A stretch of DNA of 64,000 bases, taken from NCBI RefSeq assembly GCF_054482525.1, contig NZ_CM137006.1; one strand, given 5' to 3'. Below the pieces are notes generated by a model that ran no database searches, was not told the origin of the DNA, and saw only the letters and a program-made list of their open reading frames with translations. Positions 7,796-61,957 of this stretch are shown here, in pieces. A program made the position numbers and the translations under genes. The stretch's first letter is position 1, and every line of letters begins with the position of its first letter.

Positions 7796-7825
7796 AAGGT
7801 CACTCCCCAGGGGGCGTGACCTTAT
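7796..7825. terminator. Putative bidirectional terminator hairpin between convergent chbG and katE
   Basis: Inverted repeat aggtcac...tcccc-ag-ggggc...gtgacct in an 46-bp convergent intergenic gap. Confidence 0.45.
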
Positions 7826-7831
7826 CCATAT

Positions 7832-10093
7832 TTACGCCGGGATTTTGTCAATCTTAGGAATGCGTGACCACACGCGGTGTGCTGCCATCAGCGTTAACAG
7901 TTCATCCATAAAACTACCATCGGCGCTGTCAGCTTCCACAATCCCTTCTTCACCCTGGTCAGCGACCTTGATTGTTGCTTTAAACTTGCGCGCGTCTCCT
8001 GCCAGCGCAATCGGTTTAAGGTGTTTGTAGGCTTCCATCAGGTAGTAGTTGGCATCGCCGTTGTCAGCGATATCCGCGATATTGCCGCAAGGGACAATAA
8101 CCGCATCGACCGTCAGCGAAGGTGCACCGGCAAAGGTAGCGGCTATAGGCAACACCGTACCGTCATCCGCAGTCACTTCACCCATTCGGGAGTAGAGCAG
8201 TTTGGCATGAACGCCTTTGGCCTTCAGCGCCTTGAGAATGGCCAGAAGGTCTGCCGATCCCACTTCATCATTAAGTAAAATCGCTACCACGCGACCTTTC
8301 ACATCACCGTCAGGAATGGCGTACAAACTTAAGGATGGATCCTTTTTCAGACCGTTGACGTCCGGAGGCGGGGTGATATTCAGCTGGTCGTCCGTCAGCT
8401 CGATACCGAGATTTTTCGCCACCGCCTGGGCCAGAGTGAGATCAATATGTGCCAGCTGGTCAACAACGCGCTCACGAATATACGGACGAACTACTTTGCT
8501 TAACTCAAAACTGAAACCATCGACAATATGGCGCTGCTCGAATGGCGTCTGACTTAGCCAGAACAGACGCGGATGGGAATAATATTCGCCAAACGATGGG
8601 CTGCGCTCGCGAACTTTATTGCCTTCCACGCGCTCCTGGTATGATTCAAAACCGCCGCGTTTCGGCCCCGGCGGTGTTTCGCGCGGCCAGTTATCGTTGA
8701 TCGAGTTCGGTTCATAATTCGCCGGGTTAGTGTCGATCCCCATACGATGCATGCCGTCACGCTGGAAATTATGGTAAGGGCAGGTCGGGCGGTTAATCGG
8801 AATCTCATGGAAATTCGGCCCACCAAGACGACTGATTTGTGTATCGGTATAGGAGAACAAACGTCCCTGCAACAGGGGATCGTTGGTGAAGTCCAGACCA
8901 GGAACAATATGACCTGGATGGAATGCTGCTTGTTCGTTTTCGGCAAAGAAGTTATCCGGATTGCGATTGAGCACCATCTTGCCGACACGCTGAACGGGCA
9001 CCAGTTCTTCCGGGATAAGTTTAGTTGGATCAAGAAGGTCGAAGTCGAACTTAAATTCATCTTCCTCAGGAATCAACTGGAAGCCCAGTTCGTATTCCGG
9101 AAAATCGCCTGCTTCGATGGCTTCCCACAACTCGCGGCGGTGGAAGTCCGGGTCACGTCCGGTTAGTTTTTGTGCTTCATCCCAAACGAGTGAGGCTTTA
9201 CCTGCCAGTGGTTTCCAGTGGAAACGTACGAACGTTGCCTTCCCTTCGGCATTAATCAGGCGGAAGGTGTGAATACCGAAGCCTTCCATGGTGCGGTAAC
9301 TGCGCGGGATACCGCGATCCGACATCGCCCACATCACGTTGTGCAGAGTTTCAGGTTGCAGAGAAACATAATCCCAGAAAGTATCGTGGGCGCTTTGCCC
9401 TTGTGGAATTGCCCAGTGCGGTTCTGGTTTTACCGCATGAACAAAATCGGGGAATTTATGCGCATCCTGGATAAAGAAGATTGGCGTGTTATTGCCAACG
9501 AGGTCAAAAATACCCTCTTCAGTATAGAACTTGGTGGCAAAGCCACGGATATCACGCACGGTATCGGCAGACCCAGCACCACCCTGAACGGTAGAGAAAC
9601 GTACAAATACTGGGGTGATTTTATTCGGATCTGAGAGGAAATCCGCTTTGGTGATATCGCTTAAGCTTTTATATGGCTGGAAATAACCGTGAGCGGCTGA
9701 TCCGCGTGCATGAACAATACGTTCCGGGATGCGCTCATGGTCAAAGTGAGTGATTTTCTCGCGCAGAATAAAATCTTCCAGCAGCGTTGGACCACGGCTA
9801 CCGGCACGCAGTGAGTTTTGATCATCGGCGATGCGCACGCCCTGATTAGTGGTCAGCGCAAAATTTTCACTGCCTTTGCGTACGTCTTCCAGAGAATTAA
9901 GTTTTTCGTTACGCGTATCAGGGGCTTTCAGGCTCCCAGGGGCGGTAGGTTGTGCACCTGGCGGTGTTGGTTCAGCCGCTGGACGATGAGATCCGTCCTC
10001 AGGTGCCAGTGAGTCCATCCCCGGTTTCGCTTCGCTGGAATCGTGTAGTGGTGACTGGTGCTGATGTGGGTTCTTTTCGTTATGTTGCGACAT
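7832..10093 (-). CDS. katE: Catalase HPII
   Basis: 753-aa ORF, catalase core motifs ([24 protein letters not shown]) plus C-terminal extension typical of large-subunit catalases. Confidence 0.95.
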
Positions 10094-53200: not shown

Positions 53201-53338
53201 CGTGTAATGGCTGCATGAAATAAACAATAAAATATAAATAACATTATCAGCCTGCCGACGGCTTGAAGAGAGTCACAGTATCTTGTGCAACATTATTGGA
53301 AAGCGTGAGGGGCGAGGTAGCGAAGCGGAAAAATGTTA

Positions 53339-53443
53339 AAAAAAAGCCCATCGTGGGAGATGGGCAAAGACTACACACAGCAATTCGTTGTTTCACTCAG
53401 GGGATTTAAGTCATTGATTGATTTATGGGTATGCGGTTTTTCG
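53339..53443 (-). ncRNA. rprA: sRNA RprA (3' ~69 nt canonical, 5' end divergent)
   Basis: Minus strand 53407->53339 reads AAAUCCCCUGAGUGAAACAACGAAUUGCUGUGUGUAGUCUUUGCCCAUCUCCCACGAUGGGCUUUUUUU (rpoS-pairing region plus terminator); the 5' end coordinate is extrapolated from the expected length. Confidence 0.7.
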
Positions 53444-53472
53444 GCATAAACCAAATTAAGCAAGGCTTGAAA

Positions 53473-54054
53473 ATGGACACACAAATTGCACACATATCGC
53501 ACACAAATAAAAAGGGGTATGTATGGCGCAAGCGTTATGAAAAACGCACGATTGAAATCATCCTACGCACCCGTGATAAATCAATTGCCATAAAAAGAGC
53601 GGCATCAATAACAATTCGCTATATGGAATTAAAATCACTTGACGTTCCATTTAAAGCAATGCTGGAAATGTTAAAAAAGTTTCGTGATGGTCTGATTACG
53701 TCACATGACATTGAGCGCTTAAGGTCGATTGCGATAGCTTCACAGGAAGCTCCACACGCCGCTGTAACCGCTTCGCCTATACAAAGTGTTGGCTATGATG
53801 TCAAAACCGCTCAGAAAGCCGCACAGGGGCATTCCCTTGGCGATGCTCAAAAAGTGTACTTTGGCGCCAACACCGAATGGAAAGAAAAAACCATCAAGGC
53901 TTATTCTGGTTGTATCGACCGCTTTATTTTATGGTGCGCTAATAAAAATATTCATACCGTGGAAGAAATAACGAAAGAGCATGTGATTTCATTTAAATCC
54001 AGCATGGATGAAGAAAAATTAGCCTCCATGACTAAATTTCGCATAATAATATGA
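53473..54054 (+). pseudogene. Tyrosine-recombinase (integrase)-like N-terminal fragment; catalytic domain absent
   Basis: ORF ends after a SAM-like core-binding segment (TIKAYSGCIDRFILWCANKNIHTVEEITKEHVISFKSSMDEEKLASMT); no downstream RHRY catalytic domain; start uncertain (53425/53473). Confidence 0.4.
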
Positions 54055-54362
54055 TTCGGGTTAGCATAACCAATACTTTTATTAAAGCCTATGTATGCAC
54101 CAATTTCTTTATACTTTAACTTAGTGAAATCTGAAATAATACTCAGTGGCTGCAATACGTTATGTCCATTGTGCGCCCCTTCATTAGCGCAAAATCCTGT
54201 ATTTGCAAACTGACCTTTATCACGCCAGATGAATCTATCAACGCCGCCACATACAGGACATGGTGTATGTTCATTTGGTTTAATATCAATTCCAAAATCA
54301 TTCATATGCACCAATGGATTCTTTTTAATATAATTATTCAAATCAGTAAAGAAATTAGCCAT
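53952..54362 (-). pseudogene. Primase N-terminal zinc-ribbon fragment (P4-alpha/T7-gp4-type CPxCGG..C), truncated
   Basis: HTPCPVCGGVDRFIWRDKGQFANTGFCANEGAH zinc-ribbon signature; ORF stops after about 135 aa and overlaps the integrase fragment on the opposite strand. Confidence 0.45.
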
Positions 54363-54681
54363 TATATTTGCTCCCGTATCGCCTTGCTGGATGCTTTGCA
54401 AAGAAATCAACGATATCTTGTTTGCGATACCAGATATAACCGTCTAATTCATGATGAATTTCTTGCGGAAATTCTTTAGGGTTAAAGCGTTTGGCGGCAT
54501 AAAACATTGGTTTAGTAACACCAGATAAAGCAATTGCATCATTGCCACACACAAGCCCTGTAAGTTGCACTTTCTGCGATTGTTCTTTTATCTGTGCCGC
54601 GATTAGCCTTTTATTCTCATTAACGTATTTTTCAATCTGTAGCTTACGCATTTTTTCGCGCATGTAATTTATATCGGTCAT
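54355..54681 (-). CDS. AlpA/excisionase-like DNA-binding protein
   Basis: 108-aa ORF; C-terminal segment TKPMFYAAKRFNPKEFPQEIHHELDGYIWYRKQDIVDFF resembles AlpA-family HTH. Confidence 0.5.
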   Translation of the reverse strand: MTDINYMREKMRKLQIEKYVNENKRLIAAQIKEQSQKVQLTGLVCGNDAIALSGVTKPMFYAAKRFNPKEFPQEIHHELDGYIWYRKQDIVDFFAKHPARRYGSKYNG

Positions 54682-54697
54682 TTTAGTATCCTATATA

Positions 54698-56200
54698 TTA
54701 AGTCATTATCTGTGCTGGTGGGGTAATGATATGAATTATCCCTCGATTATTCATAATGAATCTACATCGTTCAAGCCCTGTAATTGCTCGCTTTATATTA
54801 TTTGGCTGCATTTTATACTCAGTTTTTAATGCCTTCGTTAAATCGGATTCATGTACACAGCCATCAGCACTAAATTCCATTAACTGTATTATCATTTCTA
54901 AAACTCGTTCTTGTGCTGGTGCATTTTTCTTTTTTAACTCGCTCATATATGAGTCGTAAGCGAGAGTATTATTACGCGCAGCATTTTGAGTAAAATTAAC
55001 TCCTGCTTCATATGATTCTGCATTTACAGCGTTTTGCATTAATTGCTTATTTTGCTGTTGCGTTGTTAGTGGTTGCCGCTGTTGCGTGTGCATTTGCGCA
55101 TAATCATTTATCGGTGATTGCTGCATGATAAATGGTTCATCATTAGCTTGTTTGCGTTCTATTTTTCCTGCTGCAATTACTGGAGTTGGCCTATCAATAA
55201 ATACCAACGTCTTAGTATTGGCGTTTACCTGATAACCTTTTGCATTTTCTTCGGGATAATCGCATAATTCATTATTAATATCATGTAATTCACAGACGGT
55301 AATTCCGTTATCCGCTGTGCATAAATCAAATTGCATCACTGGTAATTTTGCAGCGCTACGGTTTTTTTCGATAGTGAGTGATACGGATAACCCAAAATCA
55401 TTACCCTGCATTTGCTCTAGTTTAATGACTGTATCAGAGTCATTTTTAAGGGTAATGGCTCCTTTCATACCTTTAGCCGCATCTTTGCCGCCGTGGTGAA
55501 CCATCAAGACAAAAGAATTTGTTTCTACTGCAATTCTTTTCAAAATCGAAATCAGCTTACGCATTGCAATAGCATCATTTTCATCAGGATTTTCCATATC
55601 CAAAATGGTTTTTCCATCAATGCTTTTTTTTGTGTAGTATGCCAAAAATGAAGAAAGCGTATCAAAACAAATGATGCCGCCTTTGTTATTGGTGATTTTA
55701 TTTACATCATTTATTATTCGATTCTGTATTTCTTTATCAAATAAGTTTATTTGTGGTGACAAGATGTGCATTCTGTCATTTTTAACGCCACTATTAAACT
55801 TATTAGACCACGCTGTATTTCGATCTTTGATTTCAACGCCTGTTTCACCATCAAAATAAAAAGCATGGCATTCTTTAGCAACTCGCAAACCAGCCCACGG
55901 TTTACCCTGTGCAACTCTGTTTAAAAGAGATAATGCCGCAAATGATTTGCCTGTGTTGGATTCACCATAAAGGAAGCCGACCTGTTTTCGGTTAAATAGA
56001 TTTTCAATTACAGGGCGTAACCGCTTTTCTGATTGCAATTGAATTTCAGCTAATTCAATTGCACACAATTCATCATTTATACCATCATATTCAGACCACT
56101 CACCGTAGTTGGCGGGTGCGTAATAATCAATCGCGAGAGTGTAATAATAATCAGGAATAGCAGACCAATCAATAAACATTCCTGTGCACATATCATTCAC
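54698..56200 (-). CDS. RepA-like/RecA-fold P-loop ATPase (replicative helicase-type) with C-terminal putative winged-helix domain
   Basis: 500-aa ORF; Walker A GESNTGKS, Walker B-like IICFDTLSS, LMVHHGGK; adjacent iteron array. Confidence 0.6.
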   Translation of the reverse strand: MNDMCTGMFIDWSAIPDYYYTLAIDYYAPANYGEWSEYDGINDELCAIELAEIQLQSEKRLRPVIENLFNRKQVGFLYGESNTGKSFAALSLLNRVAQGKPWAGLRVAKECHAFYFDGETGVEIKDRNTAWSNKFNSGVKNDRMHILSPQINLFDKEIQNRIINDVNKITNNKGGIICFDTLSSFLAYYTKKSIDGKTILDMENPDENDAIAMRKLISILKRIAVETNSFVLMVHHGGKDAAKGMKGAITLKNDSDTVIKLEQMQGNDFGLSVSLTIEKNRSAAKLPVMQFDLCTADNGITVCELHDINNELCDYPEENAKGYQVNANTKTLVFIDRPTPVIAAGKIERKQANDEPFIMQQSPINDYAQMHTQQRQPLTTQQQNKQLMQNAVNAESYEAGVNFTQNAARNNTLAYDSYMSELKKKNAPAQERVLEMIIQLMEFSADGCVHESDLTKALKTEYKMQPNNIKRAITGLERCRFIMNNRGIIHIITPPAQIMT

Positions 56201-56247: not shown

Positions 56248-56400
56248 TTATATAGATGCTTTGTTTTTTTTGTTTTTATCGCAAGTAACTAAATGCTCTT
56301 TTGGAAATTCTTTAGGGTTAAAACGTTTAGCCATATAAAAAGCGGTTGAGCCAATTTTAGCCAAAAGTTGTGCTTCACGAGGTGTAATTAAGTCGCTCAT
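56248..56400 (-). pseudogene. Second, truncated AlpA-like copy (50 codons)
   Basis: MSDLITPREAQLLAKIGSTAFYMAKRFNPKEFPKE...; DNA about 56305-56340 is an imperfect duplicate of 54473-54510; ends in a poly-T/A tract. Confidence 0.35.
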
Positions 56401-56689
56401 GTAGGGTATCTCTTAGATGTATTCTGAGTGCGGTCATGGTAGGCGAGGGGAGGAATAGCGGCAAGCATTACCGGATATAGTAAGCACTACCAGCTAAAGT
56501 CTAACTAACTGTCAACAGATTGAGGCTAAAACCACTGTATGTAAATTCAATTTTAAAAATTAAAAATCATTCTGGCTTAACTAATTATGCTCAATTTAAA
56601 TTGAATCTGATAATAAAAAGAATCAATAAAATGGATTTAGTGATTTTTAGTTGGACGAAATCGTTCATTTTATGTGCATTGCTCGCTGG

Positions 56690-56925
56690 TGATAATTCAA
56701 CCAATCCATTCAACCTATTCGAATGGGTGGTGAATTTTTGACCGAATTAAATTCACCTGAATATTCACCGAATGATTCACCTGAATCATTCAGCCCTTCA
56801 TTCACCACGAAACCCAGGCGCGGCGGGGCTTACAGGCCGATTCATTCACCTGAATATTCACCTGAATATTCACCTGAATTATTCAACCAAAAATTCACCT
56901 TCATATTCACTCATTCACCTCTCTA
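56690..56925. repeat. Iteron array: at least 9 TTCACC hexamers, including tandem palindromic 12-mers ATTCACCTGAAT
   Basis: TTCACC at 56751, 56763, 56775, 56800, 56844, 56856, 56868, 56893, 56913; three exact tandem 12-mers at 56843-56878. Confidence 0.65.
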
Positions 56926-57236
56926 TAAATAAGCATTGGAATGCTTTTTATAGAGGTTGATGAATGAAGGTCGTTCAAGTGAATGAACTGTGAGTTGGGT
57001 AAACCCCTAGGGGTTGGGGGTGTTGTCGATTTGTGGTAAATTCCTTCTGCCAGCGTGAAAAAGGCGCTGGTGGGGATTTGCAGCCCCAAACAAACAAAAC
57101 CATTGGCAAGGAATTGCCGATGCGCGTGCGCACGTCAGTTATGGCGGTCACGGCGAGGGAGTCGAAAGGCTCGCCAGTTTTGTTTGTTTGCTGGTACTGC
57201 AAACCTCGTCGTGATCGTCACCACGGGGATGCATGT

Positions 57237-57488
57237 ATGCAGGAAACAGACTGGCACAAAGCGGATATTCTTGCCTCTTTAAAGAAAAAGAAAATCAGCA
57301 TGGCGGGATTATCCCGTGAACATGGTTTATCAAGTAGCACGTTGCTAAATGCACTTAGTAGAGAATGGCCTAGAGGCGAATTAATTATTGCTAATGCAAT
57401 TGGTGTGTCACCTCAAGAAATATGGCCTTCTAGGTATTTTGAAAAAGATGGCTCTCCAAAAAATCGTGTGATTCGTAAACCTGTTTAA
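57237..57488 (+). CDS. Ner-like DNA-binding protein (Mu Ner / Nlp family)
   Basis: 83 aa MQETDWHKADILASLKKKKISMAGLSREHGLSSSTLLNALSREWPRGELIIANAIGVSPQEIWPSRY matches the Ner family signature; upstream in-frame extension of track ORF judged non-coding. Confidence 0.7.
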   Translation: MQETDWHKADILASLKKKKISMAGLSREHGLSSSTLLNALSREWPRGELIIANAIGVSPQEIWPSRYFEKDGSPKNRVIRKPV

Positions 57489-57849: not shown

Positions 57850-59001
57850 ATGCACGAGAAAGCGCAAACAAAAATAAAAGATACTATTAGAGAAATACTA
57901 ATCACTCCAGCAATCGCTTTTACTGGTCGTGCAGGTCATTTTGATTTTTCATTATATGAAGTTTTAGCAAATGAGCTTAACAAAAGAAAGATAAAGTTTA
58001 AAATTGATAAATTATCATGTTGGATTATTTTTGATGGCGCAAAAAAACATTACTTTCAAGATAAATCAATTACTGACGCACAAGCGATAAATGATTTTGT
58101 GGATACGTTATGTAGTATTTACTGTGAAACACCTATGGATTACTCCATCGATTTTCACTTTAGAAATTTAAAAATCGATATCAACCCGATTGATTATGAG
58201 TTTGTTTCAATTAGAGCGGGTGAGGATATTGGTATTGGTTTGTTCGCTGAAAAAGAAAAGTATGCGATTGCGAGCATTAAAAAGAATGGCTATCTTTCAG
58301 GTGGTTATCCTAGCTCATTTATAAAATCGATTTTGCAAGATTTGAAAATCTTCATTTTTTTGATTAAAAGCATTAATTTGATTAAGACAGGAAAAACCAA
58401 TTTAGCATCCACGTTATTTCAATCGATGTCCGGTCATGCTGACACAATTAAGATTGATTGCGTTAATGTTAAATATCCTTGGATGAATAGCAGTGTCCAT
58501 ATTTCAGAGTCGGTAGGGAAATTTTTACACAACTTTATCTTCAATTATGAATTTGAAGAAGGCTACATTATAGAAAAAATAGATCATTCGCTTCAGCTAA
58601 TGAATGCAATAGTAAAAGATGAGTCAAAAGAAGCCTTGCGTATCAAGGCTGCAATTGATTGGTTGGTGCAATCTGAAATCACTGATGATGAAACCATGTC
58701 TTTTATTCAAATTTGCATGGGGCTTGAATCAATTTTTGGTGATGATGATTATGAGGGTGGCCTAACAAACATACTATCTGATAGATGCGCCTACTTAATA
58801 GGGAATAAAATTAAAGAGAGGAGATTTATAAAGGACACATTTAAAAAAATATATCAAGTTAGGTCAAAGATAGTGCATGGCGTAAGAAATCATTTATCAG
58901 ATGATGAATTATATTTTAGGCATTTAGCATATTCATATTTAGAGCGTTCTATTCTAAAAGAAATTCAAAATTTAGACCTGCAATCCCATCAGGCGACGTG
59001 A
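57850..59001 (+). CDS. Hypothetical 383-aa protein with C-terminal HEPN-like R-x4-H-G motif (candidate Abi-type RNase)
   Basis: Long AT-rich ORF with SD aaggtg 11 nt upstream; RSKIVHG at residues 338-344 (nt 58861-58881) in a helical C-terminal domain. Confidence 0.65.
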   Translation: MHEKAQTKIKDTIREILITPAIAFTGRAGHFDFSLYEVLANELNKRKIKFKIDKLSCWIIFDGAKKHYFQDKSITDAQAINDFVDTLCSIYCETPMDYSIDFHFRNLKIDINPIDYEFVSIRAGEDIGIGLFAEKEKYAIASIKKNGYLSGGYPSSFIKSILQDLKIFIFLIKSINLIKTGKTNLASTLFQSMSGHADTIKIDCVNVKYPWMNSSVHISESVGKFLHNFIFNYEFEEGYIIEKIDHSLQLMNAIVKDESKEALRIKAAIDWLVQSEITDDETMSFIQICMGLESIFGDDDYEGGLTNILSDRCAYLIGNKIKERRFIKDTFKKIYQVRSKIVHGVRNHLSDDELYFRHLAYSYLERSILKEIQNLDLQSHQAT

Positions 59002-61852: not shown

Positions 61853-61911
61853 ATATAACTCAATAACTCAACCAATGGTGATGTTAAAGAATAAGGTGGC
61901 CTTAAATTTCA

Positions 61912-61957
61912 CCTTTTCTTTGCTTCACCAGCCCCGTAGGGGCGTGAGCGTAGCGAA
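61912..61957 (+). repeat. 46-bp direct repeat, copy 2 (identical to 57706-57751)
   Basis: Same 46-mer, 37 bp upstream of the tape-measure-like ORF. Confidence 0.85.

Follow-up and report, generated by a model that had tools for sequence, protein, structure and literature searches.

What is the function of the dense array of short repeats that lies in the 836-bp intergenic region between a leftward operon, encoding AlpA-like proteins and an AAA_25 helicase, and a rightward Ner-like gene in the 64,000-nucleotide stretch of DNA analyzed here (the window)? A preliminary description had placed the array in a divergent control region, as the layout of the flanking genes bears out. Based on a comparison of related loci, we consider it probable (approximately 0.78) that the array represents the iterons of the replication origin of an integrated island, and that these are read by the C-terminal winged helix of the helicase. 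Because this winged helix is proposed to read the ATTCACC units, the protein would be both initiator and helicase.

The island, its relatives and the repeat array

The array sits in an island of ~11.6 kb, located between ydiL and ydiK, that has copies of the RprA sRNA gene at its bounds (53336-53456 in the window and 20578-20685 in L001). As 71 bp are identical at both ends, we conclude that the island integrates into the 3' part of rprA. The region 56400-57300 has 100% identity to the chromosome of E. coli PCN033. The following genes are relevant here:

53425-54054, plus strand: truncated integrase
53952-54410, minus strand: truncated primase Zn-ribbon fragment
54355-54681, minus strand: 108-aa AlpA-like protein
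54698-56200, minus strand: 500-aa AAA_25 ATPase/helicase, intact in this copy
56248-56400, minus strand: AlpA-like small HTH protein, first gene of the leftward operon (50 aa here, 68 aa in relatives)
57137-57225, plus strand: C4 antisense RNA (Rfam RF01695, 65.8 bits)
57237-57488, plus strand: Ner-like HTH gene

To the right of the Ner-like gene follow genes for a HEPN protein, several products of no named function and a tape-measure-like protein.

The window carries a decayed copy of the element, as its integrase, primase, and small HTH gene are all truncated (decay at 54036/54037, 54637-54701, and 56248-56400). In strain FREC5 (L002) the element is intact: its integrase is of full length, and it also has a GIY-YIG gene, a Zn-ribbon/Toprim primase of 330 aa, a gene for a 96-aa protein, and a first gene of 68 aa. 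Relative to this copy, a deletion of 1,874 bp in the window fuses the N-terminus of the integrase to the N-terminus of the primase at 54036/54037, and took the catalytic half of the integrase, the GIY-YIG gene, and the Toprim part of the primase. The 96-aa gene is also missing. An origin in the window is probably a relic, no longer used for autonomous replication.

Near full-length copies of the region were found in only 4 of 5,426 complete E. coli genomes, and the island family in 5 of the 5,426. In strain S10 (L003) the same island occupies the same site with a DUF3987 helicase replacing the AAA_25 enzyme; it is unique, as no other DUF3987-type island was found in E. coli. Homologs of the AAA_25 helicase (57-100% identity) make up a narrow family, with members in E. 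coli, Enterobacter, and Salmonella and 349 sequences in the related Salmonella cluster; L006-L013 were taken from the genomic contexts of these homologs. The related Salmonella islands occupy a different site, beside an epimerase gene. A metagenome scan with a conserved box described below gave five useful loci (L015, L016, L018, L020, and L021) and three chance matches (L017, which was without long ORFs and was set aside, L019, and L022), while a scan of viral contigs gave one rearranged locus, L014, that was left out. Scans of species-representative genomes with the 108-aa protein and with an alignment of the helicase found nothing, and our literature search returned nothing on this island family.

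In the rightward unit, the C4 RNA precedes the Ner-like gene, and the region upstream of C4 has a leader hairpin that is conserved (about 57048-57074), while TGgTAAATT at 57034-57042 is a candidate extended -10. A perfect long-range pairing of 14 nt joins 57087-57100 (CAAACAAACAAAAC) and 57177-57190; L003 has CTAATGAC/GTCATTAG instead, a compensatory change that would fit a structured precursor or a cis target. C4 was also called in L003 and L007, and modules of a C4-like RNA and a Ner-like gene exist outside the island family (L004 9001-9419 and L005 8908-9165), one of them near tRNA-Asn, beside integrases and a fragment of a conjugative nickase. A gene related to the Ner-like one, accompanied by a C4-like stretch, occurs among IS elements in ~320 of 5,426 E. 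coli genomes.

The 383-aa HEPN-domain protein (57850-59001; NCBI name), encoded immediately to the right of the Ner-like gene, is only 41% identical between islands whose neighboring genes are 85-94% identical. It had no PADLOC or PHROG match, PADLOC likewise gave nothing for the neighboring proteins, and it may be a variable defense or cargo gene. The 662-aa product of 61994-63982 has matches to tape-measure proteins of phage tails, in their C-terminal part (PHROG 339 and 24), and its relatives have Pfam Tape_meas_lam_C. A PHROG search with seven neighboring ORFs gave no match, and no capsid, terminase, or other tail genes were recognizable in the 11.6-kb island. Based on the tape-measure-like gene, the island may be a satellite that interferes with or borrows the tail assembly of a helper. 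Upstream of this gene is a conserved element (61905-61955) with a GC hairpin (CCTTTTCTTTGC..ACCAGCCCCGTAGGGGCGTGAGCGTAGCGAA) that recurs, inverted, to the right of the L011 and L012 arrays and may be a shared promoter or terminator element.

Within the array, the 191 bp from 56729 to 56919 have 10 exact copies of the hexamer TTCACC, nine on the plus strand and one on the minus strand, in agreement with the preliminary count of at least nine in about 180 bp. From the rest of the window 0.17 copies would be expected (Poisson probability of at least 10, ~6e-15). With up to one mismatch to ATTCACC allowed, there are 17 sites in 56695-56984 (290 bp) versus ~1.25 expected from the window-wide density of 4.16 per kb in the same scan. 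The spacing of sites, start to start, is mostly 12-13 bp. The layout of the array and of its surroundings is as follows:

56510-56515, minus strand: TTGACA, candidate -35 of the leftward operon from sequence comparison, present in nearly all relatives
56520-56690: AT-rich tract, candidate unwinding region, directly left of set 1
56532-56552: conserved box CCACTGTATGTAAATTCAATT, inside the AT-rich tract
56695-56806, plus strand: putative iteron set 1, seven direct copies and one inverted, with sites starting at 56695 and 56708 (ATTCAAC), 56729 (ATTCACC, inverted), 56751, 56763, and 56775 (ATTCACC), 56788 (ATTCAGC), and 56800 (ATTCACC)
56807-56843: GC-rich spacer between the sets (68% GC in 56800-56839)
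56844-56919, plus strand: putative iteron set 2, seven direct copies, of which three are tandem ATTCACCTGAAT units (56844-56879), followed by sites at 56881 (ATTCAAC), 56893 (ATTCACC), 56905 (ATTCACT), and 56913 (ATTCACC)
56921-56955: bulged hairpin, a 35-nt imperfect palindrome with 15 paired positions
56959-56984, minus strand: two inverted degenerate iterons, ATTCATC (56959-56965) and ATTCACT (56978-56984)

Exact ATTCACCTGAAT units start at 56751, 56775, 56844, 56856, and 56868. The 12-mer is a 5+5 inverted repeat with CC at its center, and had rightly been described as a near-palindrome. The three exact tandem copies also described are real (TRF period 12), although their coordinates had been given one base off, as 56843-56878. 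Three tandem units are found in the window and L016, and two in L002, L015, and L020. The cores of set 1 are kept in L002, L015, L020, and L012, and the inverted degenerate copies are kept in the relatives that share the window's type of helicase tail (type A, below). In a comparison of four type A loci, variable columns number 4 of 112 in the cores versus 29 of 165 outside them (Fisher p = 2.6e-4), that is, the iteron cores are more conserved than the spacers, in a footprint-like manner.

The order of elements (box, AT-rich tract, set 1, GC-rich spacer, set 2, bulged hairpin, inverted copies) is the same with all three tail types of the AAA_25 helicase, and a counterpart of the GC-rich spacer was found with all repeat types. 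GC content in 120-bp windows is at its island-wide minimum (20%) for those starting at 56527-56533, in the AT-rich tract. The box is kept in all AAA_25-type loci and absent from the DUF3987 locus L003; its distance to the array is 95-140 bp, and that to TTGACA is variable. The hairpin folds with a dG of -9.6 kcal/mol (z -6.3; -5.3 to -6.5 for its equivalents in relatives) and its shape is kept despite sequence changes in L020, L012, L006, and L011, while none was found in L003 (z -1.0). This distribution suggests that the box and the hairpin may be parts of the origin that accompany the helicase core, e.g., as a loading or priming site. The leftward and rightward promoters are candidates proposed from sequence: a consensus scan gave no score to the TTGACA, which is 180 bp from the nearest iteron, and promoter and terminator sites in the consensus scan were no more numerous than in shuffled sequence. 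A consensus search for DnaA and IHF sites found none. To the right of the array, a G-rich palindromic sequence, ACCCCTAGGGGTTGGGGGT, at 57003-57021 is kept in type A loci, and a near-identical copy in the opposite orientation lies in the center of the L003 array region (about 7808-7832).

Candidate partners of the repeat motif

Twelve loci were compared, the window included. The array is in the same place in every one, and its motif differs:

ATTCACC: type A tail; window, L002, L012, L015, L020; 6-9 copies on the plus strand
C(A/G)CCAG: type B tail; L006, L007, L008/9, L010, L018; 5-9 copies (L006, L007, L008, L010, L018)
GGTTGATT: type C tail; L011; GTTGATT in four plus-strand and two minus-strand copies
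TTTCCAG: DUF3987 helicase; L003; TTCCAG in four plus-strand and three minus-strand copies

ATTCACC was never found in the type B and C loci, and L003 has one chance copy of it on each strand. The first ~400 residues of the helicase are well conserved, whereas the last ~110 fall into three types (A, B, and C) that coincide exactly with the motifs. Over the last 105 residues, identity is 53-78% within type A and 50-69% within type B, versus 25-34% when tails of different types are aligned over their full length, with short local matches reaching 42%. Across the 12 loci, four tail/helicase classes correspond to four motifs. By sequence comparison, the motif follows the C-terminal domain of the helicase exactly and follows no other protein, which supports the earlier suggestion of the ATPase C-terminal domain as a binder.

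Two comparisons bear on this correspondence. The E. coli islands L002 (motif A) and L006 (motif B) have a nucleotide identity of 98-100% in the primase and in 1 kb of the helicase core, and of only ~40% in two separate blocks, one coding for the tail and the other comprising the start of the helicase gene, the gene for the small HTH protein, and the array. Conversely, the flanks of L012 are unrelated to those of L002, yet the type A tail, the ATTCACC array, its spacing, and the hairpin are kept. That two separate blocks change together in otherwise identical or unrelated backgrounds suggests that they are functionally coupled and not simply linked. The co-variation is strong but not statistically deep, as the motif classes number four and the independent recombination events perhaps three or four.

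Other candidates for the binder were examined against the same loci. The Ner-like protein, which had also been proposed as a binder in the preliminary description, does not co-vary with the motif: it is 86-100% identical across all loci carrying it and 89-99% identical between loci with entirely different repeats, and its gene (the C4/Ner module) is absent beside the L011 and L012 arrays, and it was rejected on both grounds. The 108-aa AlpA-like protein (80-98% identical throughout) and the small AlpA-like product of the first gene, whose 68-aa type is found beside motifs A, B, and C and whose 89-aa type is found beside B and TTTCCAG, were rejected since neither co-varies with the motif. Neither the primase (99% identical between L002 and L006) nor the 96-aa protein tracks the motif, and both were discarded, as were the N-terminus and core of the helicase; the core is 94% identical between L002 and L006 but 57% between L002 and L012, though the latter two have a motif in common.

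The 500-aa helicase matches Pfam AAA_25 at residues 57-241 (E = 2.3e-21), its PHROG matches are families of replicative helicase-primases, and it is 29-31% identical to replicative helicases of Dhillonvirus-like phages. One homolog has the NCBI name "helicase RepA family protein". The full-length model was poor (pLDDT 50) and too weak for a fold search, so the assignment as a helicase rests on the Pfam and PHROG matches and the identity to phage helicases. The proposed iteron reader was modeled separately:

54698-55030, minus strand: helicase C-terminal domain, last ~110 aa, proposed iteron reader

AlphaFold2 gave the last 112 residues a mean pLDDT of 82, exceeding 90 across an H-H-H-strand-strand winged-helix part that follows a long helix. 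All top PDB matches in Foldseek were winged-helix domains (Zur/Fur DNA-binding domains, Rpa2 WH, MCM WH), with weak E-values (0.02 and above). The tail is predicted to be a winged helix, and its predicted recognition helix, located by reading the alignment against the AlphaFold2 helix positions, differs between tail types.

In each of the three motif types that go with AAA_25, the strongest units are near-palindromic around a short asymmetric center, e.g., ATTCA-CC-TGAAT (window 56751-56879), CCAC-CA-GTGG (L006-L008), and AATCA-ACC-TGATT (L011 array), a symmetry that hints at two winged helices binding one unit as a dyad. At their other end, the AAA_25 helicase (56100-56200, N-terminus) and the unrelated DUF3987 helicase (L003 5294-7078) have in common a short N-terminal motif, FID(W/R)xAxPD(Y/F), that is repeated in L003; residues 2-32 of the L002 protein and 41-71 of the L003 protein are 71% identical over 31 aa. 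The motif may dock a common partner such as the primase.

A candidate origin and its rivals

We infer binding, origin firing, self-loading, and a role for the hairpin as follows. Helicase subunits would bind both sets of about seven direct repeats via their flexible C-terminal domains; the bound helicase would open the adjoining AT-rich tract and then load itself; and priming, possibly at the conserved bulged hairpin, would fall to the Zn-ribbon/Toprim primase, an enzyme that this copy has lost and relatives retain intact. By analogy with iteron plasmids, the occupied iterons may also damp both divergent promoters. Against an origin, the 12-13-bp spacing is not helically phased, and an array placed between divergent promoters could have a regulatory role.

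Such a role could be that of a multi-site operator through which the Ner-like protein, the small AlpA-like protein, or the 108-aa AlpA-like protein controls the divergent promoters. All three have HTH-type matches or motifs, and the array is indeed between two divergently transcribed units. However, none of the three co-varies with the repeat motif, and L011 and L012 have arrays without an adjoining C4/Ner module. The array is also clear of the leftward candidate -35 (by 180 bp) and of the rightward candidate extended -10 (by at least 50 bp), and ~15 sites are unusually many for an operator, and we regard this explanation as very unlikely. The preliminary description had left the choice between an origin and a multi-site operator: comparative evidence favors the former, while the lack of co-variation argues against an operator of the Ner-like protein. 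A more conservative alternative retains the helicase tail as the binder but makes the array mainly a control element, in autorepression or in copy control by handcuffing like P4 crr, with the true start of replication elsewhere. The same co-variation of motif and tail applies to it, and the array is in a promoter region. Moreover, in iteron plasmids and in P4 the sites of the initiator serve both control and initiation. Yet the island has no second ATTCACC cluster to be the real origin (the TTCACC pair at 61908/61924 is a conserved unrelated element, constant across tail types), and it is the array that the AT-richest tract and the conserved hairpin adjoin. We consider a mainly controlling array unlikely.

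That the array is instead a packaging (pac/cos) or partition site, acting with a helper phage or a partition system, would suit an island that resembles a phage satellite in its integrase, primase, helicase, and tape-measure-like gene, and repeat arrays can be centromere-like sites. But no gene for a terminase small subunit or a ParB-like protein was recognized in the island, and that the motif tracks the helicase tail would be unexpected if it were read by a helper terminase, making this a highly improbable function. Lastly, two ORFs span the array, 56723-56932 (69 aa) and 56772-56960, and the DNA repeats could merely mirror the peptide repeats of a small protein encoded by the former, which is open in the window, L002, and L015. 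Its substitutions, however, have no third-position bias and are mostly non-synonymous (15:2, 8:2, and 19:6), L020 has a frameshifting 1-nt indel and L012 11-nt indels, and the same place holds arrays of other motif types in relatives. ORF 56772-56960 lacks a start codon in three relatives, and no coding signature was found in either ORF across the relatives. The substitution pattern, indels, and missing start codons uphold the earlier dismissal of these ORFs as artefacts, and we give a small repeat protein almost no credence.

With the origin preferred, its kind is most likely a familiar one, while the island family that carries it is apparently undescribed. A broader proposal, which we put forward tentatively and consider possible but rather doubtful, is that the rprA-integrating E. 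coli islands and the related Salmonella islands are an undescribed phage-satellite-like family with a replicon of exchangeable parts. The helicase would supply a core of the RepA type and a winged-helix tail that can be swapped, and a cassette of matching iterons would complete the set, with the box, AT-rich tract, and bulged hairpin going with the core as a loading or priming site. Joint swaps of tail and iterons would create new replicon specificities, which would avoid cross-talk or incompatibility between co-resident islands, and the position of the origin between two promoters would tie replication to the C4-RNA/Ner switch.

If confirmed, the system would be a natural experiment on the evolution of origin specificity. 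As the near-identical L002 and L006 are set apart only by the tail of the helicase and by the block of iterons, specificity swaps are directly testable. Confirmation would also extend the helicase plus winged-helix initiator design of the SaPI/PICI Reps and P4 alpha to a RepA-type AAA_25 helicase. The island family, rare and unclassified, deserves attention, and for annotation purposes 56520-56990 should be regarded as a probable origin and the ORFs across it disregarded.

Comparison with known replicons

The SaPI Reps are self-loading helicases whose C-terminal winged helix recognizes iterons (PMC9371898), and the origins of E. coli PICIs are sets of iterons next to rep, with a rep-ori fragment that replicates (PMC6092414). 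The island resembles these systems in having one protein as helicase and initiator with a C-terminal winged helix for short repeats (here proposed), two iteron sets with some copies in the opposite orientation, matched allelic Rep/ori specificity pairs (here from comparative evidence), and a small, integrase-bearing element with a primase that is separate or fused. It differs in the helicase core, which is SF3/MCM-like AAA+ in the SaPI Reps and Pfam AAA_25 (RepA-like) here, and in the placement of the origin, which is immediately 3' of rep in SaPIs and PICIs, whereas the array is 5' of the operon, in the divergent promoter region. In the former the center between the sets is AT-rich, while here the spacer is 68% GC and the AT-rich tract is left of set 1; the sites here are also more numerous (~15), with a 12-bp unit.

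The preliminary description likened the repeats to the iterons of satellite phage P4. In the P4 record TGTTCACC is annotated as type 1 repeats, and ori (9086-9809) lies between orf88 (vis) and sid. In both elements the origin, proposed or known, is thus between a leftward operon, with an AlpA/Vis-like gene first and replication genes last, and a rightward operon, and TGTTCACC has the hexamer TTCACC, while the crr variant TATTCACC contains ATTCACC. In our literature search the octamer TGTTCACC was found in primer sequences only. The reader of the P4 repeats is the primase-helicase, through its C-terminal domain. No homology between this domain and the tail profile was detectable by hhalign (probability 0.06%), and PDB searches with the tail gave no pointer to the P4 alpha domain, which may be absent from the libraries searched. 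The P4 helicase is of a family other than AAA_25, the primase is a separate gene here, and the unit here is ATTCACC(TGAAT), whereas the P4 8-mers are ~10-11 bp apart and mostly without dyad symmetry; there is no second, crr-like ATTCACC cluster in the window. As no similarity between the tail and the C-terminus of alpha could be detected, the shared TTCACC is best treated as coincidence or convergence. The likeness to P4 consequently stands for the hexamer and the position of ori, and does not extend to homology of the binding domain or to the helicase family.

A third comparison is with the oriV of RSF1010, which has the RepA helicase, its own primase, iterons, and adjoining hairpin single-strand initiation signals (PMC8567376). 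RSF1010 RepA was not retrieved in single-sequence and profile searches of PDB sequences with the helicase. The IncQ plasmid and the island are alike in having an element-encoded primase at an iteron origin (in the island, a putative one) with a hairpin beside the iterons, and perhaps also in having a RepA-type (AAA_25) helicase. They differ in that RSF1010 has a separate initiator, RepC, and its RepB' primase acts on the ssiA/ssiB hairpins, whereas in the island the putative DNA-binding domain is fused to the helicase, and the candidates for priming are the Zn-ribbon/Toprim primase of the relatives and one conserved hairpin.
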